Counted from the first letter of the stretch, positions 3,887 through 54,874 are shown. The stretch is DNA of 64,000 bases from Candidatus Iainarchaeum sp. (GCA_021158055.1 JAGGVJ010000019.1:23940-87939); one strand, 5' to 3'. Notes: generated by a model not told the origin, from the sequence alone. Numbers and translations are program-made.

Positions 3887-4816
3887 ATGAAATTGTCTGG
3901 CGCGATAAACAAGAATTTTTCAAGAATACTTATTCTTGGTTTATTGATCTTTGTCCTTGTGCTGATTCTTGTAAGCACTCACATCGTGTCGTGCAGGGCA
4001 ATTCCCGGATTTTGCGGGGTTTATGAGTCTTTTTTTGGAAAGCCTGATGTTCTGATTGTCTACGGCGACGATGGGATGGGTGACGAAAGGGTTTTGTATG
4101 ATACTTTTGTCAAGAGGCTGAATGTGTTTCCCGAATCAATGCATGTGAAGATAATCAGTCCGGGTTATCTTGAAAAATACGAGCTTGTTATCGTGACCCA
4201 TGCAAAGACCATGAGTGTCCAGCAGATAAAGTCACTGATGGATTATGCTCTGAAGGGAGGGCGGCTTGTTTGGATAGGGGATGCAGGAACGGGTTTTCCG
4301 CAGGGTGAATCTCCGGTTTATCTCGATGACATCGAGCAGTGCGTGCAGGAACCCTCAAAACCATTGGACTGCCCTGAACACGAACTGCTTAACCCGTGGG
4401 TCAGAAAAGATTCAAACAGGGTTTACAGGCTTGATTATCTTTTGAATTCCGAGGTAATCGGTTATTTCTCGCAGGATCCGAATTATTTTTCAGGCAAGAT
4501 GCAGATACCGGACAGGTCAGACCCGCTTGTAAAAGGCATTTCTTCAGACCTTTCGCTTAAAACAAACTTTCTGGTAGTCAAACTGACTGACGTCGGCCAG
4601 TTTGAGGCAGGGCGCAAAATAGTCGCCACAGTTACAACGAACGCTTCTTTTGAAAAAGACGGTTTAAAGTACTCTGACCCTTTCCCTGTGATTATTTCAA
4701 GCGGGGTCGGGGGCGGAAAAAGAGTTGTCTATTATGCCTTTTCACCTGAAGAACTTGTAAAATCGCAGAAATGGTACTCGTTTATAGAAAGCATTTACTA
4801 TGCAATGGTTTACTAG
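3887..4816 (+). CDS. Membrane-anchored hypothetical protein, paralog A (possible GATase1/ThuA-like fold)
   Basis: N-terminal TM. Alignable with the next gene: LVIVTHAKTMSVQQIKSLMDYALKGGRLVWIGDAGTG matches DVVMLHQTGADKTVDRKSREEIARRVKNGGKLIVIQNAGTK, and GGGKRVVYYAFSPEE matches GFGGATVYFNFDPST. Confidence 0.55.
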   Translation: MKLSGAINKNFSRILILGLLIFVLVLILVSTHIVSCRAIPGFCGVYESFFGKPDVLIVYGDDGMGDERVLYDTFVKRLNVFPESMHVKIISPGYLEKYELVIVTHAKTMSVQQIKSLMDYALKGGRLVWIGDAGTGFPQGESPVYLDDIEQCVQEPSKPLDCPEHELLNPWVRKDSNRVYRLDYLLNSEVIGYFSQDPNYFSGKMQIPDRSDPLVKGISSDLSLKTNFLVVKLTDVGQFEAGRKIVATVTTNASFEKDGLKYSDPFPVIISSGVGGGKRVVYYAFSPEELVKSQKWYSFIESIYYAMVY

Positions 4817-4996
4817 TAGCAGTTGCACCGTATTTTTGGCACTAACAGGACTTTTTTTAGGAAAGTATTTAAATATACCGTCGCTATTCTATATTCTATA
4901 ATCAGTATTTATGCAATAATTTTATATTTTGTATTGACCTTATTAGAAAGTTGATTTTATTATAAATGGGGATAAATAAAAAAACGGTGTGTAAAA

Positions 4997-5830
4997 ATGG
5001 ATCAAAATGAACGTCAGGATAACGGAAGAAGTGGACTTTCATACCACATGGAAGGTTTTATACCATTGCTGATTGTATTGGTTTTGGTTGTGTTGATTTT
5101 GTCAAGCCAGGGAATGATAAACCTTGGCGGCATTCCTGTTTTGGGTGCTTTTTTCCCGTCAGCCGGCGGGATGAATGTTCTTGTTCTGGGCGAGTCAAAC
5201 GCTAGCATGATGGATATACTTAATTCCAGTGACGCAAAAGCAATGGGGATACAGGTAACTCCTTTTTCAGACCCTAACTCACTTTTCCCGAATTATCTTG
5301 ACGGTTTCGATGTTGTAATGCTGCACCAGACAGGCGCAGACAAAACGGTTGACAGGAAGTCAAGGGAAGAAATTGCAAGAAGGGTGAAAAACGGGGGAAA
5401 GTTGATTGTGATACAAAACGCCGGAACAAAGGTTACAGACGATGCATCTGTGCTTGGATGGGGACTTGGCTACGGTGAAGTAATTCCTGTCGAGTGCGTC
5501 AACGTCCTGAACCCGGGTGAAGCATCCTGCGACACACCGATCAGTATTTCAGGTGTTTTTCAGCCTGCAAAACCAAACCACAAGGTGCTTGAAGGGATTG
5601 TTAAGTATCCTGCACAAGGCACAAGGCACTTCAACATTTATGGCGTGAGGCCAAAAGGAGAGGTTTTGGCGTATATTTCCGAGACATCAACAGGAACACC
5701 TTACCCGGCAGTTGTTGTTGGAAGCGTAGGGTTTGGCGGCGCGACAGTTTACTTTAACTTTGACCCGTCAACTGACCAGAGAATGCCCCAGCTTTTGCTG
5801 AACTCAATTTCCTACCTGACAGGGTACTAG
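4997..5830 (+). CDS. Membrane-anchored hypothetical protein, paralog B
   Basis: N-terminal TM (IPLLIVLVLVVLILSS). Clear paralogy to 3887-4816. Confidence 0.55.
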   Translation: MDQNERQDNGRSGLSYHMEGFIPLLIVLVLVVLILSSQGMINLGGIPVLGAFFPSAGGMNVLVLGESNASMMDILNSSDAKAMGIQVTPFSDPNSLFPNYLDGFDVVMLHQTGADKTVDRKSREEIARRVKNGGKLIVIQNAGTKVTDDASVLGWGLGYGEVIPVECVNVLNPGEASCDTPISISGVFQPAKPNHKVLEGIVKYPAQGTRHFNIYGVRPKGEVLAYISETSTGTPYPAVVVGSVGFGGATVYFNFDPSTDQRMPQLLLNSISYLTGY

Positions 5831-6030
5831 GTGCCCTGGCCGGTTTTAGGAAAAATGTTTTGATCCACCAGGCCTGCAGGGAATTTTCCCATGCAGGCAC
5901 ACCGTTTTTGTCCCGTTTAACTTTTTTTCAAGCGTGGTTTATATATTTCATTTGGTTAATTGTTATTTTAAGTGTTTTTGCCGACAAACTTAAACGCTTG
6001 TTTTGAAATATATTTAGCGGGGCAGGCAGT

Positions 6031-6528
6031 GTGAAAGCAGTAATTTGTGAAGAGTGTGCAAGAAGCGGAAATTTCTGCGACAAGTGCATGGAAAAGATTG
6101 AAAAAAATGAGGTTTCAGACATTGATATTAGTGTTACCCGTGCACTTTACAAGGCATCGGAAAGGTTTTTTTTAAAAGATGTCGAGTTTGTCAAGGCATT
6201 TGAATTCCCTGATTTTGTAGTGGTGATGGTTGGCGGAAACGTGGGTTCGCTTATTGGGAAAAGCGGCAGGGTTGTTCATTTGCTTTCCTTGGAGTTTGGC
6301 AAGACTGTCCGGGTAATAGAAAAAACCGGTGACTTCAAAAAGATGGTTCAGGACATTTCAGGCCGCGCGAGGGTTGTTTCTGTTAATGTGCTGTTTAGTG
6401 CCGGTGAAGAACTCATTGAAGTCGTGGTTCCTGAAAAAGACAAAAAAAAGCTTTTTGCAGACCACGTTCTTCTTGAACAGATGATTGAAGAAATAAGCGG
6501 GAAAAAAGTGAGGTTTGTATTTGTTTAA
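6031..6528 (+). CDS. Predicted RNA-binding protein: N-terminal C4 zinc ribbon plus KH domain
   Basis: CEEC...CDKC zinc ribbon. KH-like GxxG loop (LIGKSGRVVHLL). GTG start. Confidence 0.5.
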   Translation: MKAVICEECARSGNFCDKCMEKIEKNEVSDIDISVTRALYKASERFFLKDVEFVKAFEFPDFVVVMVGGNVGSLIGKSGRVVHLLSLEFGKTVRVIEKTGDFKKMVQDISGRARVVSVNVLFSAGEELIEVVVPEKDKKKLFADHVLLEQMIEEISGKKVRFVFV

Positions 6529-6646
6529 ATACTGAAAAGTTATTTATGTTGTGCCTGGTATTTATATTGTTTAACAGGTCTTTTTGTTGATTTAATTTAT
6601 TTTTGGCGTTGTGATTGATTTTTTATAATATTTTGAAGGTGATTTG

Positions 6647-7957
6647 ATGTTTATCAGACAGGATTATGCAGTGGAAGTGACATCCGAAAGGGATGGTCAG
6701 GAAGTTGTCGTTGCAGGGTGGGCTCATGAAATCCGTGACCTTGGCGGGATAAAGTTCATTCTTGTCCGGGACAAGACAGGTATTGTTCAGCTTGCACTGC
6801 CAAAGAAAAAAGTTTCTGAAAGCATCTGGAACGTGCAGATATCAAAGGAAGACGTTTTGCAGGTGAAAGGCGTTGTCAAAAACTCGCCGAATGCCCCGAA
6901 CGGAGTCGAAGTGATTCCGTCAGAAATCAATGTTTTAAGCAAGGCCGTTTCCCCTCTTCCTCTTGAAGTCACCGGAAAGGTGGAGTCAGAGTTTGACACG
7001 CGTATAAAATCCAGGTTCATGGACCTTAGAAAACCGGACATAGCCGCAATATTCAAGGTCAGGGATGCTGTTTTGACCGGTGTGCGTGACTTTTTTGAGT
7101 CGGAAAAATTCATTGAAATCAACTCGCCGAGAATCATCGGTGCCGGCTCTGAAGGAGGGTCTGAACTTTTTCCCCTTCCTTATTACGGAAAGGAAGCGTT
7201 TCTTGCGCAGTCCCCGCAGCTTTACAAGCAGATAATAATGGCGTCGGGTTTTGACAGGATTTATGAAATCGGCCCTGTTTTCAGGGCGGAAAAGTTTGAC
7301 ACTACAAGGCACATAAGTGAAATAATCATGGTTGACTCGGAAATGTCTTTTATTGAAGATGAGTCAGCTGTCATGGATGTTTTAGGCAAGATGCTTGTGT
7401 CGGTTCTCCGACACGTGAAGAAGGTCTGCTCAGAAGAACTTGAGCTTCTTGGAATTGAGCTGGGAATACCCAACTTGCCTCTGCGCCAGGTAACTTATGA
7501 TGAAGTAATCGCGCTTTTGCAGGAGAACGATGAAAAAATAAGCTGGGGGGAGGACTTGAGTGATCCCCAGGAAAGAAAGCTTGGCGAGCTCATGGCAAAA
7601 GAGGGCTTTGAAGCGTATTTCATAACCAGGTATCCGAGTGACATAAAAGCTTTTTATATCATGGAAGATGATTCAAATCCAAAGTATTCAAAGGCCTTTG
7701 ACCTTGATTACATGGGAATTGAACTTGCTTCCGGGGGCCAGCGTGAACACCGCGTTGACAGGCTTGTTGAGCGCATAAAGAAAAAAGGCATGAGTCCTGA
7801 ACAGCTTGGTTTTTACATTGAAGCATTCAAATACGGGATGCCTCCGCACGGCGGGTTCGGACTTGGGCTTGACCGCATGGTGCAGCTGATTTTGAGGCTT
7901 CCAAACGTAAAAGAGTCTGTTCTTTTCCCAAGGGATATCAAGCGCCTTATCCCTTAA
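6647..7957 (+). CDS. aspS: Aspartyl-tRNA synthetase, archaeal type (class IIb)
   Basis: N-terminal OB anticodon-binding domain. Motif 2 FRAE (PVFRAEKFDTTRH). Motif 3 GGFGLGLDR. Confidence 0.9.
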   Translation: MFIRQDYAVEVTSERDGQEVVVAGWAHEIRDLGGIKFILVRDKTGIVQLALPKKKVSESIWNVQISKEDVLQVKGVVKNSPNAPNGVEVIPSEINVLSKAVSPLPLEVTGKVESEFDTRIKSRFMDLRKPDIAAIFKVRDAVLTGVRDFFESEKFIEINSPRIIGAGSEGGSELFPLPYYGKEAFLAQSPQLYKQIIMASGFDRIYEIGPVFRAEKFDTTRHISEIIMVDSEMSFIEDESAVMDVLGKMLVSVLRHVKKVCSEELELLGIELGIPNLPLRQVTYDEVIALLQENDEKISWGEDLSDPQERKLGELMAKEGFEAYFITRYPSDIKAFYIMEDDSNPKYSKAFDLDYMGIELASGGQREHRVDRLVERIKKKGMSPEQLGFYIEAFKYGMPPHGGFGLGLDRMVQLILRLPNVKESVLFPRDIKRLIP

Positions 7958-7992
7958 ACGGCAAGGCATTTTTTGTTTTTTGCAGAAACATT

Positions 7993-8559
7993 TTAAAGCT
8001 TGAATTCCATGTCCACTGCGTTGTGGCTGAAGTAAGCCGTAAAGCTCACCAGAAAAATCATTGTGCTAAGCAGCACCATGACTGATTCGTCTGGAGTTGT
8101 GCCTGAGTATTCAGCTATTTTTTCAAATGAAAAGTAATAGATTGTAACCGCAACCAGGCTGTAAATAATTGCCGCGCGTATTGTGTGGGTGAAGCCCCTA
8201 TGCCTTGGCTTGAACAGCGTGATTGCGACAAAGGTTATCACAAACCCTGCCACAGCAGCAACAGCCGCAGTTGCCAGGTCGTCGGTGTGCATTAAGGCTG
8301 CTGAAAACAAGGCGATTGCAATCAATACGCACAAAAAGTTTCTTGTCTGCTTGTAGATGTTTGATCTCCTGTGGTCAATGTCCGGAAGAATGCTTCCGAG
8401 AACGGAAAATACAAGGGCAAAAAGTCCTGTTGCGGTGATGAGGGTTGACTCAAAGATGTTTTCTGTAAGTCCGAGGTCTGACGCAAACATGAAAAGAACC
8501 AGTGCAAACATGAAGAAGATCATTATTCCTATGAGTGCATGAACTTTTCCGGACGCCAT
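7993..8559 (-). CDS. Membrane-bound metal-dependent hydrolase-like protein (DUF457/YdjM-like)
   Basis: Multi-TM protein with conserved His/Asp positions (LPDIDHRRS, GFTHT). Confidence 0.45.
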   Translation of the reverse strand: MASGKVHALIGIMIFFMFALVLFMFASDLGLTENIFESTLITATGLFALVFSVLGSILPDIDHRRSNIYKQTRNFLCVLIAIALFSAALMHTDDLATAAVAAVAGFVITFVAITLFKPRHRGFTHTIRAAIIYSLVAVTIYYFSFEKIAEYSGTTPDESVMVLLSTMIFLVSFTAYFSHNAVDMEFKL

Positions 8560-8598
8560 TTAAAAACAACCCTGTTGTTACTTTGTTTGTTTTTGTTT

Positions 8599-9042
8599 TT
8601 AATTGTTTTCGAGTTTTTTGAGGCACTCAAGGAGTGCCGGGTGAACGGATGTCGTGAAGTGGTCAGTCACTTTTGTTGGTTTCACCCACTTTGTCTCTTT
8701 GAATTTCTCCCCGGCTTTTTCAGTCCCGCTTGTTGGTTCGCACAAGAAGTAAATTGAAAGAAACTCCCGTTTTTCAGGGTATGTTTTTGCAAAAACGACA
8801 TTGTTTATTTGTATCTCAAGGCCTGTTTTCTTTTTTACTTCGCGCTTTAAGTAAAACTCAAGTCCTTTTTCATATCCTGGTCTTCCGCCCGGAAATGTCC
8901 AGGAAAGCTCTTTTATGAACGGGTCGTTTTCGCGTTTTCCAATGAGTATTTTTTTGGTTTTTTTGTCAAATATTATTGCAAGCACGTTTACAAGAAATGC
9001 TCCCCTGTCAAACTGCGCGAAATCAACGTTTGTTTTGTCCAT
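8599..9042 (-). CDS. NUDIX hydrolase
   Basis: Nudix box GGRPGYEKGLEFYLKREVKKKTGLE, matching Gx5Ex7REUxEExGU. Confidence 0.75.
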   Translation of the reverse strand: MDKTNVDFAQFDRGAFLVNVLAIIFDKKTKKILIGKRENDPFIKELSWTFPGGRPGYEKGLEFYLKREVKKKTGLEIQINNVVFAKTYPEKREFLSIYFLCEPTSGTEKAGEKFKETKWVKPTKVTDHFTTSVHPALLECLKKLENN

Positions 9043-9325
9043 GGATTAATTGTGATTTAAGCCACATAAATTCTTTTTCAAAAATCAGGGGAAAAATTCC
9101 CAAAGATTAACCGGGTTTTATTCCTTTTTTTGGCCAAATAATACCGGAAGTGTGGGGGGTGGTATTTTTGGATTTCAACCGGGTTTAATATTTGATTTCA
9201 GAAGAATTTAGACAGCTAAAGCTGATAATAAGTGGAATTAAAAGAATTTAATTTTTTAAGCGAAGAAGTGCAGAATCGGGGGGCGATTCTGCGGGGGGAT
9301 TTCTTCGCCTTGGTCATTTGACCGG

Positions 9326-9838
9326 TCACCGAACGCCTTTTTGGGGGGATGGAATAAAATAGAATACTTTTTTTCCAAACCGTTCTTTGGTGAGTAGGAA
9401 TTGGGCGGAAAGCTTGTTCAGTCGTGCGCAGGCGGCGTTTGTTCCTTTATAGCCAAGCGCCATCTGAACTTCCTTTGCTTCTACACGCCCTTTTTTCCTT
9501 GCTATGGCAAGGATTGCCTTGTCCTGTTCGGGCAAAAGTTCAACAAGCAATGTGTTGTCCCTTGCTTCTTCTGCTTTTTTTGAGTATTCACTCGTGTTGG
9601 TTTTTGAATTCTGCGTCACGGTGTTGATTTGTGCTTCGAGTTCGTGTATCCTTTCTTCAAGCAACATCAACTGATCTATTTTTGCATTGAGTTCTTTCAA
9701 GATCAGGTTTGTTGACGCTCGTTCCTCTGCCAATCTAAAGAGAAGCGACCCGATATAGACAGGGTTTTCAAATTTTTCCATATCAGACCTAACATCACTT
9801 GTAAGGTCCTCATATTTTTTTTCGTGATGATTTTTCAT
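9326..9838 (-). CDS. Coiled-coil plus C-terminal winged-helix protein; putative transcriptional regulator
   Basis: Central heptad-like region. C-terminal wHTH-like segment (AILAIARKKGRVEAKEVQMALGYKG...ARLNKL). Confidence 0.4.
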   Translation of the reverse strand: MKNHHEKKYEDLTSDVRSDMEKFENPVYIGSLLFRLAEERASTNLILKELNAKIDQLMLLEERIHELEAQINTVTQNSKTNTSEYSKKAEEARDNTLLVELLPEQDKAILAIARKKGRVEAKEVQMALGYKGTNAACARLNKLSAQFLLTKERFGKKVFYFIPSPQKGVR

Positions 9839-9935
9839 TCATTCACCGAAACGTTTATGAATGGCATTTCACTTTGTTGTATTCAGTTTTGTGCATTCAC
9901 GACCTAAAATTGTAAGGCATTTGACTGCAACTGAC

Positions 9936-10012
9936 CATCATGATTAACACGGGTTGAGCCCGTGATTGTGTCATGACCGTTCACAAACATATCATGATAG
10001 TATCATGACATA
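9936..10012 (+). promoter_or_regulatory. Cluster of palindromic (A/G)TCATGA(T/C) boxes plus a hairpin upstream of the wHTH gene; putative operator
   Basis: catcatgatt, gtcatgacc, atcatgatag, atcatgacat, plus hairpin cacggg-ttga-gcccgtg, 100-170 bp upstream of the 9838 start. Confidence 0.3.
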
Positions 10013-10089
10013 TAAAAAGGTTTCTGTCTTTTAAATTCTGATTTTTTTTGTGGCTTATTTGCTGAAAGGTTGAAAAACCGGCGGGTAAG

Positions 10090-10549
10090 CTAGATTTTTT
10101 TCAGGGATGTTTCACTGATAACATTAAAACCCATTTTTTCGTAAAACTGTCTGGCGTTTTTGTTTGCTTTATAGTAGTTTACTGAAATTGATCTGCGGTT
10201 TTTTTCTTTGAACTGTTTTGTAAGTTCTGTCATTAATTTTTTGCCAACGCCTTTTTTATGGTATTCTTTTTTTATGTAGATGTCAAAATTGCCTTTTTTC
10301 TGGTTGACTCCTTTTTGACTTTCGCCTACTGCAAAACCCACTAAGTTTTCATTTGTTTTTGCAACCAGCACAGTGATGTTGTCTGAGTGCAGATACCGGG
10401 TAATTTCTGCGGTGGTTTTCTTTTTTTTCATAATCTGCCAAAATATCCCTGATTTTTTTGCCATGCAGGGAAATTTCAAACTCTCTTAAATCATCATACA
10501 TTTTTTTAATGGATTTTACATCAGACCTTTTTGCTTTTCGTATTTTCAT
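10090..10549 (-). pseudogene. GNAT family N-acetyltransferase, frameshifted in a homopolymer
   Basis: The N-terminal GNAT part (MKIRKAKRSDVKSIKKMYDDL...) is in ORF 10349-10549. The C-terminal part (VLVAKTNENLVGFAVGE...HKKGVGKKLM...FYEKMGF) is in ORF 10090-10479, another frame. The switch maps to the T8/A8 run at about 10421-10428. Confidence 0.6.
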
Positions 10550-35060: not shown

Positions 35061-35154
35061 GTGGCTGAATAATTCAAGTTTGTTTTTGCAAAAAACGTTT
35101 ACTTTTTGAATTTGTTTTTGTGCGTTTTGCACCTGGGATTTTGAAAAATAGTCA

Positions 35155-36054
35155 CTATTTTAGTGAGTGATGTCTTTCAAGAATGTTGCCTGCAAGCTTA
35201 AAGTTTCCGAAAGGCATTATGTGCGCGCCTGCAAAGCCCAGCTTTTTTGCCTTTTCCAGCATTTCATTGGAAAATTTCAGGTTGCTTTGTGTGTCTTCTA
35301 TTTCTGAAATGACTTCTTCGGGAATTGTTATTCCAGGCACATGTTCATTAAGGAACTTTGCTGTTTTTGCAGAGGTGAGCAAAAGGATTCCGGGAAGGAT
35401 TTTGGTGTTGATGTCTTTTGTTGCTTTAAAGAATTCTTCAAGCAAAGTTAAGTCAAAAAAAGGCTGGGTCTGAATAAATTGCGCTCCAAAAAGTGCTTTT
35501 TGCCTGATTCTTTTTATTTCAGGGTTTTTTGCTGTTGCAAAAGATCCTCCGCCTATGAATGCATCAAACTTGTTTTCAAGGGGGTTTCCGGCAAAGTCAG
35601 CTGAATTTTCAATCATGGTGTTTACTTTTGAGATCAGTTCAATTGAGTTCATTTCAAAAACTGCTTTGGCTTTGGGGTTGTCCCCGAGTTTCGGGGGGTC
35701 GCCTGTTAAAAGCAAAAAGTTGTCTATTCCTTTTGCTTTTGCGCCAAGCAAGTCGGATTGTATTGCAATTGAGTTCCTGTCCCGGCATGTTATCTGCATA
35801 ATCGGTTCAAACCCAAGCGAAACAAGTTCAATTGACGGCACAAGCGAGTTCATTATGACGTTTCCCATGGGACAGTCCACTACATTCACTGCGTCTGCAA
35901 GCACGCAGGCTTTCAGAGCACTGTTTGTGAACTGGAAGGAGGGGGACTTCATAGGGTCTATTTCAATTGTGAGTGCAAACTGATTGTTTTCAAGTTTTTC
36001 CCGGAAAGTCTGGATTTCCTTAAGATCGTGGTTTTGAAAGTTGTTTTTTTTCAT
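35155..36054 (-). CDS. metF: Methylenetetrahydrofolate reductase (MetF family)
   Basis: IMQITCRDRNSIAIQSDLLGAKAKGIDNFLLLTGDPP, matching hlTCRDrN...GirNiLaLrGDPP. Confidence 0.75.
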   Translation of the reverse strand: MKKNNFQNHDLKEIQTFREKLENNQFALTIEIDPMKSPSFQFTNSALKACVLADAVNVVDCPMGNVIMNSLVPSIELVSLGFEPIMQITCRDRNSIAIQSDLLGAKAKGIDNFLLLTGDPPKLGDNPKAKAVFEMNSIELISKVNTMIENSADFAGNPLENKFDAFIGGGSFATAKNPEIKRIRQKALFGAQFIQTQPFFDLTLLEEFFKATKDINTKILPGILLLTSAKTAKFLNEHVPGITIPEEVISEIEDTQSNLKFSNEMLEKAKKLGFAGAHIMPFGNFKLAGNILERHHSLK

Positions 36055-36110
36055 GTTATCCTTGGTTTGCTTTTGTTTTACGTTAAAGATTGTTTTCGTT
36101 TTTACTGAAA

Positions 36111-36518
36111 TTATTTTTGGCTTTTTGAAATTTCAATGGGTTTGTCCTGAGTATATTGCAGACCGAATTTTAAAGACATTTCTGCCTTGTGCAATTCTTT
36201 TCCAAGGTATGCGTAGTGTTCGGGAAGAGACGCTTTTTCGTTTTCGATTATTGCCTGGTATACTGCAGTGGCGGTTTTTCCTACTATTGTGCTTGTCAGT
36301 TTTCCTGTAAGCATGGCACCGCCGTCAAGCACATTTTCGTAGTGTTCTGCTATAATTTGCTTTTTTTCCAGGTCATTGTGGATTACAAAAAACCCGTTCG
36401 GATCGTATTCAATTGATTTGCGTTCTTTTGCCTTGATTAATCTTACGTTATTGTCGTCGTTTTTGTTTTCTTCTGTTATTTTGAATTGTCTTTTGAGGAA
36501 TTCTATTTGTTCACTCAA
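36111..36518 (-). CDS. Hypothetical protein inside the C1 operon
   Basis: 135 aa with no recognisable motif. Its end overlaps thyA by 8 nt. TTG start. Confidence 0.4.
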   Translation of the reverse strand: MSEQIEFLKRQFKITEENKNDDNNVRLIKAKERKSIEYDPNGFFVIHNDLEKKQIIAEHYENVLDGGAMLTGKLTSTIVGKTATAVYQAIIENEKASLPEHYAYLGKELHKAEMSLKFGLQYTQDKPIEISKSQK

Positions 36519-37197
36519 TATTCAACACCTCTTTTACGTTTTCCCAGTTGTGGTCATAGATGTGGGCTGAACCGGAAACACAAGTGATGCTGCCGGTTTC
36601 AAAACCGCTTCCGTCTGCGACTTTTTTCATAAGGTTGGCAAGGCCGTACATATTTGCGGGCCAGGCTCCAAAACAGTCGTGAGAGCGAAAGTAAAGGTGA
36701 AGATGCAGCTTGCTGTCTCTTACCTGGAAATGAGTGAATATGAGGCAAGGCGCTTCATCGGATTCGGTGTCAATTGGAGGAATCCAAGTGTGGCATATTG
36801 CTCTTCTTGTGTTTGATGAAGCTTTCAGTTTTTTTATCACCCAGTCAATCTGGTTTAATTCATTGTTCCATTTGTGCAGGCGGTTCCCGTAAGTGTATTT
36901 GAATTCTCCCGGGTCGCTTGAAAGAATCGTCTGGTTTGTGTACTGTTCAAGCCGTTCTTTTGACCAGGGAAACCCTTTTGGTGTCATTGGCTCTTCAAGC
37001 GGGTTTTCTATGTATGCCAAAAGCTGGAGTATTTCTTTTGTGTCGTTGTCGTACTCGCTGTGAAGAATGTGCCCCCGTTTCCATATTGCCTTGATTACTT
37101 TTGGCCAGGTTTCCCCGATTGTTTTTCCTTTGACAAAAGTTCCGATTTTTGTCGGCTTTCCTGGTTCATTGCTTTCAAAAGTCAAGTGTGTCCCCAT
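36511..37197 (-). CDS. thyA: Thymidylate synthase (ThyA family, short archaeal form)
   Basis: APCLIFTHFQVRDSKLHLHLYFRSHDCFGAWPANMYGLANLM aligns with the E. coli ThyA [40 protein letters not shown] active-site region, including the nucleophilic Cys. Confidence 0.8.
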   Translation of the reverse strand: MGTHLTFESNEPGKPTKIGTFVKGKTIGETWPKVIKAIWKRGHILHSEYDNDTKEILQLLAYIENPLEEPMTPKGFPWSKERLEQYTNQTILSSDPGEFKYTYGNRLHKWNNELNQIDWVIKKLKASSNTRRAICHTWIPPIDTESDEAPCLIFTHFQVRDSKLHLHLYFRSHDCFGAWPANMYGLANLMKKVADGSGFETGSITCVSGSAHIYDHNWENVKEVLNIE

Positions 37198-37263
37198 CTA
37201 TTCTTGTTTTTTTGTTCATTTATAGTTTGCGTAGGTTTCGTGAAGTTTGTGTTTTTTGTTTTT

Positions 37264-38160
37264 TTATTTATAGATATTTAACCCGAAATCGTTTTCCGCT
37301 TCTTTTTGCATCTCGTGCACGAATGCTGCTGCGGGAAACACGTTTTCTGCGAGTTCGATTGGTCCGAAAAGCAAAAAGTTTGAACCAAAAGCCATCTGCA
37401 TTGAATTTGCAGCTACATTGCATTCGTTTTTGAATTTTTTGTGGTTTGAGTCTGAAAGCCATTCCCACGACGATATCGCATTGTGTATTCCGTTTCCGGA
37501 TGGAAGCCCGAACTTTGCTTTAACTGAAGAAACGGCGCGGACAGATGCCGCGGCACCATGGCCCAGCGGAGTGGTTGCCGTGTCAATCAAAAAATTCTGC
37601 ACCCCTGCTTCTTTTGCAATATCAACAAGGCTTTTTTTAAGGAGATTGTCTTCGCAGAGCAGGTTTAGCTTCCCGGCAAGCGATGAATCCTTTGGATTGT
37701 ATAAGAGGATTATCGCCGATTCAACGTCTGTGTTTTTGAGTTCGGTTATTTCTTTTTCAGTTACTGAAAAATTTATGGAGTTATAAATCATTTGGTCGCT
37801 TACGCCTGTTTCTGTTGCGTACTCGGCGCCGTAAAGGCGTGTTTCCGATTCTGTTGAGTCAATTATAATTGGGCCTTCAAAGAGATTGCATGCAAAATCA
37901 ATGCGTTCTTCCATTGACTGCGGGCTGTCTGCAAATATTTGTATTGCGCCGGGTATTCCTGTTGAATCTGATGCTTCAAGCTGTTTGTTTATGAGGTCTT
38001 CAGCGCGTTTTGAGTCAAATGAACCTGATTCGCCGGTGAGTATGTTGTGTTTTGAATAAAAAATTGTTCCGCAAAGCATGGTTGGTGTTTGCCCTGGCTG
38101 GCCACCGATTTTTGTTCCGGCAATGTCAAAAATTTTTTGTGGTTTTGAAAAAACAAACAT
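37264..38160 (-). CDS. MtrH-like methyl-tetrahydromethanopterin/tetrahydrofolate:corrinoid methyltransferase (pterin-binding)
   Basis: N-terminus MFVFSKPQKIFDIAGTKIGGQPGQTPTMLCGTIFY, compare MtrH [30 protein letters not shown]. Confidence 0.7.
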   Translation of the reverse strand: MFVFSKPQKIFDIAGTKIGGQPGQTPTMLCGTIFYSKHNILTGESGSFDSKRAEDLINKQLEASDSTGIPGAIQIFADSPQSMEERIDFACNLFEGPIIIDSTESETRLYGAEYATETGVSDQMIYNSINFSVTEKEITELKNTDVESAIILLYNPKDSSLAGKLNLLCEDNLLKKSLVDIAKEAGVQNFLIDTATTPLGHGAAASVRAVSSVKAKFGLPSGNGIHNAISSWEWLSDSNHKKFKNECNVAANSMQMAFGSNFLLFGPIELAENVFPAAAFVHEMQKEAENDFGLNIYK

Positions 38161-38177
38161 TTACTTCACCGTTTTTA

Positions 38178-38789
38178 CTATGCTGTCTGGTTTGCCTCAC
38201 TGGATTTTTCACCTATCACGCCTGTTTCGGGATCGAAAACTATTTTGTTTTCCGCGTCAATAACTGCGATATTTTCGCCGAGATTTAGGTTTATTTTTTT
38301 TTCTTTTTCTTTTTTTGTCACAAAAAACGGTTCTCCAAAATACCCCTGGTTTTCAAGTGCGCATCGTTTGATTTCTTTTATGATTGTGTCTTTGTTTTGT
38401 GTTCCCGTTAAATCAATGACCTGGACCTGTTCCCTGAAACGGTTCACTGCTTCCTGCGGAAGGTTTTCAAGAAACGGGATGGCTCCCTTTGAATTTATGA
38501 TGCGTTTGTTTTCGTCCAACCCAAACCTGCTAAGTGAAACAATTGATTGTCCTGTAAAGTGTCCTGTGACTTCTTCCCCGCACACAATTAAAAATCTTAT
38601 GTTCGGGTTTGCAATCAGGTTGGTTACGACGCGCTCTATTCCAAGGTTTTCTGTGAGAGCGCGCCCGTACAAGGCAACTTCGTTCAAGTCAAGTTTTATG
38701 TCTGAAAAAAGAGTGAGTACTGAAATGCTTGCGTTTGGATTTACAACAGTATAGCTCCCCTGCAGCACAGGCCATTTTTGTTTTTCCAT
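38178..38789 (-). CDS. MtrA-like corrinoid-binding protein (soluble MtxA-type, no C-terminal TM)
   Basis: WPVLQGSYTVVNPNASISVLTLFS...NPNIRFLIVCGEEVTGHFTGQ, matching the MtrA WPxxKGxY...NPNIRYLIVCG signature. Confidence 0.7.
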   Translation of the reverse strand: MEKQKWPVLQGSYTVVNPNASISVLTLFSDIKLDLNEVALYGRALTENLGIERVVTNLIANPNIRFLIVCGEEVTGHFTGQSIVSLSRFGLDENKRIINSKGAIPFLENLPQEAVNRFREQVQVIDLTGTQNKDTIIKEIKRCALENQGYFGEPFFVTKKEKEKKINLNLGENIAVIDAENKIVFDPETGVIGEKSSEANQTA

Positions 38790-39201
38790 CACTATGAATA
38801 TGGCAACGGATTCTTTTATAGATTTACTTTGCTTTGTTTGTTTGGTTTTATACCTGGTTTTTGTTTAGCTTTAATGCAAATTTTGTTCTCAAAAGGCTCC
38901 TTCAAGAAGCCCTTATTTTTTACAGGGATGCACTATTATTTGATGAAAATATAGTGGTTTAGAGGATTTATTTTTTTGAAAAAAACAAAAATGTATGTTT
39001 TTTCGACAATAAGTTTAAAAATAAGTTCTGTAAGTAAAATTAATTACAGTTTATGAGTTATTTTGGCATGCATCAGAAAACCTTGTTTTTAGTTATTCTG
39101 ATGCATAAGGGTTTTTTGTTACCGTGTGGTTATTATTTGCGGCGTGTATTTATTATTTGCAGTACTTTATTATTTGGTTTTGAAAATTTAAAATGTGATT
39201 A

Positions 39202-51820: not shown

Positions 51821-54076
51821 ATGGAAGAAACTGATTTTGCAAAGAACAACAAGTATGCCTGGCGGGAATTTAAAGGAGGCGCATGGCAAAACGAGATCAA
51901 TGTGCAGGATTTTATTCAAGCCAACTATTTTTTTTACTCGGGAAACGAGTCGTTTCTTGAAAAGCCGACTCAAAGGACCCTGGAACTTTTTTCCAAAAAG
52001 AAAGAACTTTTGAAAAAAGAAGCGAAAAGAAACGGGGTTTATGATATCGACGTGAAAACCCCTTCAACGATTATTTCTCATGCTCCCGGCTATGTTGACA
52101 GAAAACTTGAGCTCATTGTCGGCTACCAGACAGACCAGCCTCTTAAAGTCGGAATAAAACCGAAAGGGGGGATAAAGTTTACTGAAAAGGCCTGCAATGC
52201 CTACGGTTTTGAGCTTGATGAAACAGTAAAGGATATTTTTGAAAATTATTCAAAGACACACAACGACGGTGTTTTTTCCGCTTATTCAAAAGACATCAAA
52301 AATCTTCGCCACAATTGTCTGATTACAGGCCTTCCTGACAACTACGGCAGAGGGCGTATAATCGGTGACTACAGGAGAGTTGCCCTTTACGGCGTAAAAA
52401 AACTGATTGCTGAAAAGCAAAAGGACTTTGAAAAACTTTCATTTTCAGACATACAGCTGCGGGAAGAAGTTTTCGAGCAGATAAGCGCTCTTGAAGAACT
52501 GATTGAAATGGCTTATTCTTACGGGTTTGACCTGACCCGCCCGGCACTAGACGCAAGGGAAGCGGTTCAATGGACCTGGTTTGCATACCTTGCGGCAATC
52601 AAGGAACAGGACGGCGCTGCCATGTCTTTTGGAAGGGTTGATTGTTTTTTTGACATATTTATAGAACGCGACTTAAAAGAAGGAACCCTGACTGAAAGCC
52701 GGGCGCAGGAACTTATTGACCAGCTTATACTTAAAATGAGGTTTGTAAGGCATTTAAGGCACCCGGAATACAATGCCTTGTTTGCAGGACAGCCGACGTG
52801 GATAACTTGCGTGATAGGCGGCATGACTGTTGCCAACGATGTTGACAAAAAACCCCTTGTGACAAAAACTTCTTTTCGCATGCTTCACACTTTGACTAAT
52901 CTGGAACCTGCACCTGAACCCAATCTCACTGTGCTTTGGAGTGAATCCCTCCCAGGTGATTTTAAGGAATATTGCTGCAGGATAAGCATTGAATCAAGTT
53001 CCATCCAGTACGAAAACGACGACCTGATGAAACCGCTGTTCGGAACCGATTACGCGATTGCCTGTTGCGTAAGTGCCATGAGAATCGGAAAAGAAATGCA
53101 GTTTTTCGGGGCACGGTGCAACGGCCCAAAACTGCTTTTGCTTGCATTGAACGGCGGAAAAGACGAGCTGACCGGAAACCAGATTGCCCCTGCCAAGCCG
53201 GTTCCCTCCGGAGAGTTTCTGGATTATGCTGAAGTCAGGGAAAAATATTTGTTTTACTGCGACTGGCTTGCAGAGCAATACGTTAACGCAATGAACATAA
53301 TTCACTTCATGCACGACAAGTATGCCTATGAAAGTTTGCAGATGGCTTTGCATGACACCAGTGTAAAGAGGTTTATGGCCTTTGGCCTTGCAGGGCTGAG
53401 CGTGATTGCCGACTCGTTGTCTGCCATCAGGTACGCGAAAGTCAAACCTGTAAGGGATGAAAACGGTATTGCAGTTGATTTTGAAGTGCAGGGTGATTTT
53501 CCAAAGTTTGGAAACGATGATTCAAGAGCAGATGATTTGGCTGTTGAAGCAGTGAATGCATTCATCGGATTTCTGAAAAAATATCCGACTTACAGGAATT
53601 CAGAGCACAGCCTTTCAATTCTCACAATCACTTCAAACGTAGTATACGGGAAAAAAACCGGTGCAACACCTGACACGAGAAAAAGCGGCGAGCCGTTTGC
53701 TCCGGGCGCAAACCCAATGCATGGAAGAGACACAGAGGGAGCGGTTGCTTCTTTGAACAGCGTTGCCAAAATCCCTTATTCCTCGTGCCTTGACGGCATT
53801 TCAAACACTTTTTCCATTGTTCCCGCGTTTCTTGGAAAAACAGAGAAAGACAGGATAGCCAACCTCAAAGGCCTTATTGAAGGATATTTTGCCAAAAACG
53901 GGCATCATCTCAATGTAAATGTGCTTGACAGGGATCTTTTGCTTGACGCCATGAAAAACCCGCAGAAATATCCGAATCTCACCATAAGGGTTTCAGGTTA
54001 TGCCGTTAATTTCACAAGATTGAATAAAGAACAGCAAAAAGAAGTGGTTTCAAGAACATTTCATTGCTCGGTTTAA
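51821..54076 (+). CDS. pflB: Formate C-acetyltransferase (pyruvate formate-lyase-type glycyl radical enzyme)
   Basis: Glycyl-radical motif [11 protein letters not shown]. Adjacent catalytic cysteines ACCVSAM. Confidence 0.85.
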
Positions 54077-54127
54077 TTTATTTGTTTGTTTTGTTAATTT
54101 ATTTGTTTTGATTTAAGGGTGCTTTTG

Positions 54128-54874
54128 ATGGATTCTGCCAGGGGAAAAATTGAAGGGCAAATTAACTCTCTCCAGTCTTTTGGAACCCTTGACGGCCCGG
54201 GGATACGTTATGTTGTTTTCATGCAAGGATGCCCACTAAAATGTGTTTTTTGCCATAACGCCGGTGCGATTGACCTGAAAGGTGGAAAAAAAGTCACTTT
54301 GGACAAACTCATGGAAAAAATTGACAAATGCATTCCTTACCTTAAGCAAGGCGGAATAACTGTCAGCGGCGGGGAGCCAACTCTTCAGTGGCGGTTTGTC
54401 AAGGAGTTTCTTTCAGCGTGCGGGCAAAGGGGTCTCCACACAGCGCTGGATACGTGTCTTTTCACTAAAAAAGATGTTTTAGTCAACCTTATCCCGGAAG
54501 TTGATTTGTTTTTGGTTTCAGTCAAGCACATGGATGCGGAAAAACACTTTGGGTTGACCGGAAGGGACAACAAGCTGATTTTGGAGAACATCAGGTATGC
54601 GGCGTCAAAAAAGCCTGTCTGGCTGAGGTATGTGTTGATTGAAGGCATAACTGATTCAGAGGAAGACCTGCTTGACCTGATTGGTTTTGCAAAAAAGCTT
54701 GAAAAGCTTGAGTTAATTGAACTTCTTTCATTTAGTTCAATGGGTGTTGAAAAGCAAAGGGAATTCAAGGGTTTTAAAATCACGAAAACAAAAGATCTCA
54801 AGGCGCCTTCCCTGAAAAAAGTGCTTTGGGCAAAAAAACTGCTTGAAGAGAACGGGTTTAAAGTGGTTGTTTGA
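54128..54874 (+). CDS. pflA: Pyruvate formate-lyase activating enzyme (radical SAM)
   Basis: CPLKCVFCHN (Cx3Cx2C). GGITVSGGEP. Confidence 0.85.
   Translation: MDSARGKIEGQINSLQSFGTLDGPGIRYVVFMQGCPLKCVFCHNAGAIDLKGGKKVTLDKLMEKIDKCIPYLKQGGITVSGGEPTLQWRFVKEFLSACGQRGLHTALDTCLFTKKDVLVNLIPEVDLFLVSVKHMDAEKHFGLTGRDNKLILENIRYAASKKPVWLRYVLIEGITDSEEDLLDLIGFAKKLEKLELIELLSFSSMGVEKQREFKGFKITKTKDLKAPSLKKVLWAKKLLEENGFKVVV

Follow-up and report, generated by a model that had tools for sequence, protein, structure and literature searches.

A predicted variant of soluble MtrA-MtrH methyl-transfer systems linked to thymidylate synthase through DUF4346

Introduction

Why would a thymidylate synthase gene sit inside an operon for corrinoid methyl transfer? 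The locus that raises this question lies on a 64,000-nt stretch of Candidatus Iainarchaeum sp. DNA (GCA_021158055.1, JAGGVJ010000019.1:23940-87939; hereafter the window). Five consecutive genes on its minus strand encode homologues of the corrinoid protein MtrA and the methyltransferase MtrH of methanogens, a thymidylate synthase (ThyA), a small protein of the DUF4346 family and MetF, a member of the methylenetetrahydrofolate reductase (MTHFR) family. Judged from its genes, the operon appears to be a new variant of soluble MtrAH methyl-transfer systems, tied to ThyA via DUF4346.

The locus bears on three questions: the role of stand-alone MtrA and MtrH, the one-carbon (C1) donor of archaeal ThyA and the function of DUF4346. 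What MtrAH does on its own, and where its methyl group goes, have been described as unclear (Adam et al. 2022; Valentin-Alvarado et al. 2024), and the biochemistry of archaeal ThyA as essentially unknown, the enzyme never having been purified (Chadwick et al. 2022; Filée et al. 2023). The searchable, non-subscription literature yielded no mention of DUF4346 or PF14251, no link between MtrA and ThyA and no account of corrinoid-dependent thymidylate synthesis.

Results

DUF4346 as the predicted link between MtrA and ThyA

All five open reading frames (ORFs) were found exactly where the sequence-only reading, an earlier interpretation of the window, had placed them, and profile searches agree with its family calls for MtrA, MtrH, ThyA and MetF; neither the MtrA-like nor the MtrH-like ORF was reassigned to an unrelated family. 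The fifth ORF, of 135 aa, had been considered to have no recognisable family. It matches PF14251, PterinBD-DUF4346 (E=3e-24, 86 bits, cutoff 30), and carries the conserved DPxGFF, EHY, HxxYLGxELxKAE and YxQD motifs.

An exhaustive HMMER search placed 510 cluster representatives at 50% identity in the DUF4346 family. Among the best 150 of these, 68 are multidomain proteins by Pfam, and the partner domains point directly at the operon: MtrA occurs in 50 of the 68 and Thymidylat_synt in eight, followed by a DHPS-like Pterin_bind domain with DUF6513 (six) and 4Fe-4S ferredoxin domains (three). MtrA, ThyA and DUF4346 are joined in single chains in seven proteins, with every domain above its Pfam threshold; the named examples come from metagenome-assembled genomes (MAGs) of Aenigmarchaeota and Nanoarchaeia. 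MBI4896267.1 and HLD19244.1 are among the seven. DUF4346 comes after ThyA in these triple fusions, at the position of the folate-closing tail of classical ThyA. Because the family is fused to MtrA and to ThyA in other DPANN archaea, DUF4346 is predicted to be what ties the cluster together, its partners elsewhere being two of its neighbours here.

The sequence-only reading had also proposed structure prediction for the 135-aa ORF. An AlphaFold2 (AF2) model was obtained from an 18-sequence alignment (pLDDT 83.8; 49.6 for a single-sequence model), but it has no structural relative in the PDB, and a sequence search of the PDB was likewise without a match. A DHFR-like or flavodoxin-like reductase was considered for DUF4346 and rejected on the predicted fold and on the presence of the family in the methionine synthase (MesA) operons described below. 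Three DUF4346 proteins of ~520 aa (P0166, P0185 and P0240) have an extra N-terminal region of ~250 aa with a CxxCxxC motif before MtrA-DUF4346. The 4Fe-4S ferredoxin domains that Pfam finds in three family members may hint at built-in reductive activation.

The gene order is conserved beyond this genome. A word-indexed homologue search returned four ThyA and two DUF4346 relatives, and the MtrH of the window has one relative at 83% identity, the next reaching only ~45-49%. The short contig of the 83% relative, as far as it reaches, has the order MtrA-MtrH-ThyA-DUF4346. The window MtrH falls in a DPANN-type clade together with other ThyA-adjacent MtrH genes. Within this clade, ThyA lies directly after MtrH in four loci (L011, L013, L020 and L172) and 5 kb away in another (L012); a stand-alone DUF4346 gene directly follows MtrH in L027, and only L171 has no ThyA nearby. 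The linkage, whose conservation in relatives the sequence-only reading had named as a check, is therefore kept at both levels of MtrH identity, with the families fused elsewhere. None of ~65 mtr/mtx loci of methanogens, methanotrophs and alkane oxidisers (ANME-1, GoM-Arc1) has ThyA, MetF or DUF4346 within 8 kb, so the linkage appears to be specific to the DPANN-type clade and not general for MtrH. We found no paper that describes it, and the earlier description of the arrangement as outside the textbooks was apt. Taken together, fusions and gene order make it very probable that ThyA works together with the MtrA/MtrH/DUF4346 module.

MtrA, MtrH, ThyA and MetF

MtrA matches PF04208 (E=2e-51) and aligns with the entire cytoplasmic domain of the solved MtrA 5LAA (E=3e-43). 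In this alignment it retains Glu54 (TENLGIE), the cobalt ligand His84 (EVTGH; position 78 of the window protein) and GAIPFLEN of the GAIPFxEN motif. Glu54, His84 and the GAIPF/YxEN motif were described as the elements for cobalamin binding by Wagner et al. 2016 (PMC4915002), who also regard an MtrA of less than 215 aa as a cytoplasmic homologue. Methanogen MtrA has ~240-250 aa and a C-terminal transmembrane helix, unlike the window protein, which ends in a hydrophilic C-terminus after 204 aa. Because it is below 215 aa and hydrophilic at its C-terminus, the window MtrA would have no membrane anchor and is a cytoplasmic homologue, not the membrane-anchored subunit; it is predicted to bind a cobamide.

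MtrH matches PF02007 (E=4e-97) and TIGR01114 (322 bits, cutoff 271), and the solved MtrH 9QTP over its full length (234 bits, residues 1-296). A weaker full-length match, at 141 bits, is to the methylcorrinoid:tetrahydrofolate (THF) methyltransferase MtgA (6SJ8). Of the eight-subunit mtrEDCBAFGH set, Pfam annotation of the surrounding ~20 kb shows only MtrA and MtrH, with MtrB-G not found, which does not fit the energy-conserving Mtr complex. The 'mtx-type' label of the sequence-only reading is loose. Membership of an Mtx (MtxXAH) operon was rejected since no MtxX is nearby and the MtxA-type model NF010654 reaches 178 bits against a cutoff of 279, and the MtrH belongs to the DPANN-type clade.

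ThyA matches TIGR03283, 'thy_syn_methano' (215 bits, cutoff 175), and PF00303 (E=3e-24). In E. coli numbering (the N-terminal part of the alignment is less certain), it shares with classical ThyA the fold, the nucleophile C146 and the residues of the deoxyuridine monophosphate (dUMP) site, Y94, R126', R127', R166, S167, N177, H207 and Y209. Unlike classical ThyA, it has neither the folate-contacting W80/W83 loop nor the C-terminal lid of ~45 aa, as is also true of the other archaeal short ThyAs that were collected. Substitutions relative to E. coli are H147L, Q165F and F176A, which its relatives share, and L172G. Thymidylate synthase chains of 234-238 aa in PDB entries 9IQC, 9IQU and 9IR2 end where the archaeal short type ends, and may be the first structures of this class.

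MetF matches the MTHFR family PF02219 (E=5e-25, 89 bits, cutoff 24) and gives weak matches to solved MTHFRs. Its best NCBIfam match, to the MTHFR half of the bifunctional homocysteine methyltransferase/MTHFR model NF006396, scores 219 bits, below the cutoff, and no NCBIfam equivalog cutoff is reached. MetF is a divergent member of the MTHFR family. No MetV-type gene adjoins metF in the Pfam context. The linkage of MetF with MtrAH recurs, since a Thorarchaeota locus (L083) has the order MetF-MtrH-MtrA-MtrH, with tblastn support for MetF, MtrA and MtrH. This locus (4690-10362) comprises a candidate MetV-like ORF, MetF, a divergent second MtrH, MtrA, a canonical MtrH and a 471-aa ORF, which may be a corrinoid activase.

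ThyA and MesA in related operons

A metagenome census, seeded with a six-sequence alignment and covering the 80 best of at least 533 DUF4346 loci, revealed two further settings of the module. In six loci (L095, L101, L105, L134, L141 and L157), an MtrA·DUF4346 protein is found with ThyA and deoxycytidine triphosphate (dCTP) deaminase, Dcd. The order in L101 is Tmk - MtrA·DUF4346 - ThyA - Dcd - Tmk, by its gene content a probable operon for thymidine triphosphate (dTTP) synthesis with a corrinoid protein inside. The His ligand is kept wherever the MtrA part is present in these ThyA/Dcd loci (L101, L105, L134 and L157).

The second setting is (MetF)-MtrA-MtrH-MesA-DUF4346, in 7 of the 80 loci, all archaeal and outside the classical methanogens (L091, L092, L093, L094, L104, L106 and L114); the genes overlap, and their coordinates are 58-2751 in L091, 3582-6321 in L093, 623-4348 in L104 and 3503-6318 in L114. 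MesA in all seven is a core methionine synthase of ~300 aa (PF01717; NF002119 at 248-270 bits, cutoff 258) and has no pterin domain. Each gene of the window operon has its counterpart in L104, with MesA in the slot of ThyA. These operons would need no new chemistry: MetF would take methylene-pterin to methyl-pterin, MtrH would pass the methyl to MtrA as methyl-Co(III)-MtrA, and MesA would use it to make methionine. Price et al. 2021 described MesA as a methylcobalamin-using enzyme that lacks the pterin domain, and predicted that its methyl group comes from MtrA. The window itself contains no homologues of MesA (tblastn, two MesA queries, E<=0.01), Dcd or Tmk.

Operon organisation and host

Coordinates of the genes and of the putative transcription signals are collected in Table 1. 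Distances between the genes, in transcription order, are 17 nt, 66 nt, an 8-nt overlap (thyA and the DUF4346 gene) and 56 nt. With this spacing, and because of the TATA-like box 5' of mtrA and the T-runs and hairpin after metF, the five genes look like a single transcription unit. The same five genes were called independently, with identical proteins, on four public metagenome contigs. A scan for RNA families found no riboswitch or known RNA in or beside the operon; two sub-threshold matches are attributed to chance, and a spurious Rfam hairpin match coincides with the putative terminator after metF.

Table 1. Genes and putative transcription signals of the operon (window coordinates).
Feature	Position	Strand	Description	Basis
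TATA-like box TATAAAAG	38813..38820	minus	~25-30 nt 5' of mtrA start; putative archaeal promoter	sequence inspection
mtrA (soluble corrinoid protein)	38178..38792	minus	204 aa; alternative ATG start 38789	PF04208
mtrH (methyl-pterin:corrinoid methyltransferase type)	37264..38160	minus	298 aa	PF02007, TIGR01114
thyA (archaeal short-type thymidylate synthase)	36511..37197	minus	228 aa	TIGR03283, PF00303
DUF4346 gene (stand-alone PterinBD-DUF4346)	36111..36518	minus	135 aa; TTG start	PF14251
metF (MTHFR-family methylene-pterin reductase)	35155..36054	minus	299 aa	PF02219
T-runs and GCAAAACG/CGTTTTGC hairpin	35088..35150	minus	3' of metF stop, between convergent genes; putative terminator	sequence inspection

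Archaeal markers in the window include an A-type ATPase operon directly upstream of the five genes, fibrillarin/Nop5 and Sec61-beta. The window MtrH is identical to a protein assigned at NCBI to a 'Candidatus Diapherotrites archaeon' MAG. Because MtrH homologues beyond the 83% relative reach only ~45-49% identity, the host appears to represent an isolated DPANN lineage. No pterin biosynthesis genes were found in the 64-kb window, and the right flank beyond it holds no relevant C1, cobamide or pterin genes. A pyruvate-formate-lyase-like glycyl radical enzyme of 751 aa and its radical-SAM activase lie at 51821-54874 on the plus strand, a possible source of formate or C1 units.

Discussion

A proposed route from methyl-pterin to dTMP

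How might these proteins work together? Tentatively, and with less than even confidence, we propose that methyl groups flow from MetF through MtrH to MtrA, that ThyA methylates dUMP from MtrA and that DUF4346 acts as an accessory. MetF would reduce methylene-pterin to methyl-pterin, and MtrH, as the loading methyltransferase, would transfer the methyl from methyl-pterin to cob(I)amide on the soluble MtrA. The short ThyA would then add its Cys to C6 of dUMP, and the resulting C5 carbanion would take the methyl from methyl-Co(III)-MtrA to give thymidine monophosphate (dTMP). Addition of Cys to C6 to create a C5 carbanion is common to every ThyA and to the S-adenosylmethionine (SAM)-dependent m5U methyltransferases. 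Since no pterin hydride would be used and no dihydropterin formed, dihydrofolate reductase (DHFR) would not be needed. DUF4346, conserved alongside MtrA and MtrH, would assist that half of the system as an adaptor or by presenting the pterin.

The individual parts of this proposal stand on different ground. That methyl groups flow in this direction, and that MtrA donates them to a downstream enzyme, we infer from the sister MesA operons. By analogy, ThyA would occupy the acceptor (MT2) slot beside MtrH as MT1 and the corrinoid protein MtrA. Because ThyA stands in the MesA slot, is fused to MtrA and DUF4346, and shares dTTP operons with them, ThyA as the acceptor enzyme is the most economical reading, and the missing W80/W83 loop and C-terminal lid would fit a pterin-free methyl transfer. 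The transfer from corrinoid to dUMP itself is purely hypothetical.

Several observations weigh against the proposed route. Asp169, whose side chain contacts the pterin ring in classical ThyA, is retained. We know of no ThyA-fold enzyme that moves a methyl group from a corrinoid onto a carbon of a nucleotide. His84, Glu54 and the GAIPF motif have been lost from six of the seven MtrA-ThyA-DUF4346 fusions, and the degenerate MtrA domain of these six may not bind corrinoid in the known mode; corrinoid proteins of the His-off type do exist. MtrA is absent from the 8 kb around several MtrH-ThyA pairs, as is MtrH from the 6 kb around several MtrA·DUF4346-ThyA loci. No reductive activase for Co(II) (RamA/RACo-like) was found in the Pfam context of the window, nor were genes for cobamide uptake or synthesis seen in the window. 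Additionally, the MtrH genes found with MesA fall in a clade of their own, at 31-36% identity to the window type, so that the analogy with the MesA operons is one of architecture and not of orthology. For the same reason, a recent MesA-to-ThyA swap as the origin of the window module was rejected.

Alternative explanations

The strongest competitor, in our judgement only somewhat less likely, places the operon at a C1 branch point. ThyA would be a conventional enzyme that converts methylene-pterin to dihydropterin, MetF, MtrH and MtrA would feed a MesA-type synthase or another acceptor elsewhere, and DUF4346 would be a pterin-binding protein or adaptor. DUF4346 may then replace the folate-binding elements missing from the short ThyA, and the fusions may be scaffolds of pterin-dependent enzymes. 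In favour of this explanation, Asp169 is kept along with the full dUMP site, and the MtrA domain is degenerate in most triple fusions. The position of DUF4346 in the fusions, where classical ThyA has its folate-closing tail, is in line with a pterin-related role, as are the Pfam name 'PterinBD' and the fusion of the family to DHPS-like pterin barrels, and the MesA operons show an MtrAH module serving methionine synthesis. According to a secondary description (PMC9931769), archaeal dTMP synthesis is known only from crude extracts, where it draws on formaldehyde-derived C1 units with endogenous modified folates, and methylene-level C1 so described as entering dTMP favours a conventional ThyA; the result is compatible with both the corrinoid-donor and the methylene-pterin models. 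A branch point nonetheless leaves two things unexplained, the MtrA-ThyA fusion and the canonical corrinoid protein in dTTP operons that have no MetF, MtrH or MesA. The 64-kb window has no MesA, the operon offers no candidate dihydropterin reductase, and DUF4346 does not have a reductase-like fold.

That last point also bears on a second alternative, in which ThyA is again conventional and MtrA·DUF4346 regenerates tetrahydropterin from dihydropterin, in analogy to DHFR-TS. Fusions of the ThyA-DUF4346 and MtrA-ThyA-DUF4346 kinds echo the logic of that enzyme, some DUF4346 proteins have 4Fe-4S ferredoxin domains and many ThyA-bearing archaea have no FolA (PMC9931769). The predicted fold is not DHFR-like and the family also occurs in MesA operons, which makes pterin recycling an improbable function.

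We consider reverse flow less probable still. The sequence-only reading had raised a methyl-corrinoid supply to the methylene pool through reversed MetF, in which a methylated substrate would load MtrA, MtrH would form methyl-pterin and MetF would oxidise it to methylene-pterin for a conventional ThyA. In principle, each of the four enzymes could run backwards, MtgA-type homologues of MtrH do run from corrinoid to THF, and DPANN genomes might have no other supply of C1 units. Oxidation of methyl-pterin by MTHFR is thermodynamically unfavourable with pyridine nucleotides. No substrate-specific loading methyltransferase (MtaB/MttB/MtgB-like) is encoded in the operon or in the window, the sister MesA operons would run from pterin to corrinoid to methionine, and fusing MtrA to ThyA would serve little purpose with three steps between the two proteins; these data favour forward flow. 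Finally, chance adjacency or a decaying remnant of methanogenesis without joint function can be dismissed almost entirely: MtrAH 'remnants' are common in non-methanogenic archaea according to the literature, but here none of the five ORFs is disrupted, catalytic residues are conserved, different lineages share the arrangement and the fusions are independent.

Implications

If the corrinoid-to-dUMP step is real, a DNA precursor would be made by a new enzymatic route, and DPANN archaea, with their reduced genomes, would depend on B12 in a new way, which would bear on how these symbionts rely on their hosts for cobamides and pterins. A bolder extension, which we regard as improbable, would make the whole short archaeal ThyA family, methanogens included, methylcorrinoid:dUMP methyltransferases fed by MtrA-type proteins, with DUF4346 as the coupling domain. 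Should this hold for the whole family, it would constitute a third, B12-dependent route to dTMP alongside ThyA and ThyX, without dihydropterin, and would explain both the ThyA-bearing archaea that lack DHFR and the never-established C1 donor of archaeal ThyA. Even on a conservative reading, the gene fusions and operons provide the first genomic support for the prediction of Price et al. that MtrA feeds core methionine synthases, and they define a soluble MtrA module whose acceptor enzyme can be exchanged.

Relation to known systems

The window MtrA and MtrH are true members of the methanogen families (~45% identical), with the His84/Glu54/GAIPF site kept, and the first half-reaction, from methyl-pterin to Co(I), is presumably the same. 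Unlike the methanogen Mtr complex, the window system has no MtrB-G, membrane anchor or sodium pumping, and its acceptor cannot be coenzyme M (CoM) via MtrE. The methanogen mtr loci examined show the expected MtrA-to-MtrH spacing and, unlike the window, never the three other families within the 8 kb surveyed. A soluble MtrA and MtrH without the remaining Mtr subunits are also found in Thorarchaeia, Bathyarchaeia, the Methanomassiliicoccales 'MALP' and Asgard archaea. These stand-alone systems, in contrast to the one described here, have been taken to supply the Wood-Ljungdahl pathway or CoM, and none has been reported next to ThyA or DUF4346. The MtrA described by Speth & Orphan 2018 ends in an extension that was left unexplained; this unusual C-terminal extension of the MALP MtrA may be DUF4346.

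Closest in logic are the MesA systems of Price et al. 2021, which likewise pair a corrinoid protein with a pterin-independent acceptor enzyme; in the window the acceptor slot is held by ThyA, and the MtrH proteins are as divergent as noted above. MetH, MtaABC and MtgABC also combine a pterin-binding barrel, a corrinoid carrier and an acceptor-activating enzyme, and the operon reads as a disassembled MetH. It differs from MetH and MtaC in that its corrinoid domain has the MtrA fold and not the MetH/MtaC B12-binding fold, and in that no reactivation module was seen; the proposed acceptor would be a nucleotide carbon and not a zinc-activated thiol. DHFR-TS resembles the fusions in joining ThyA to partner domains, which in the present case are MtrA and DUF4346, neither of them DHFR-like in fold.

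Additional observations

Most DUF4346 loci belong to a different setting. Those examined (L116, L127, L139, L163, L164 and L169; ~4700-6400 in each) have a GC content of 0.47-0.64 and are probably bacterial. The protein of this majority class has 400-420 aa, with a Cys-rich N-terminus (..KCHKCGC..) followed by MtrA and then DUF4346; an ArsR-type regulator precedes the gene and CcdA-like membrane proteins flank it. L116 is additionally flanked by an MBL/rhodanese protein and a heavy-metal P-type ATPase. This class looks like a metal(loid)-responsive corrinoid system.

A separate clade of 285-aa MtrH-like proteins is found in DPANN-type MAGs labelled Nanohalarchaeota, Aenigmatarchaeota and 'Bathyarchaeota' (L079, L080, L084 and L086). 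These genes adjoin mevalonate-pathway genes and have no MtrA, ThyA or DUF4346 nearby. On a further archaeal contig (L173, 2877-11170), a 255-aa MtrA and an MtrH lie near a URO-D-family (MtaA-like) methyltransferase and a classical B12-binding protein, which suggests that soluble MtrAH modules combine with further acceptor enzymes. Across the window itself, the GC skew is positive from 1 to 56 kb, negative at ~56-60 kb and then near zero, with a cumulative peak at ~56 kb.

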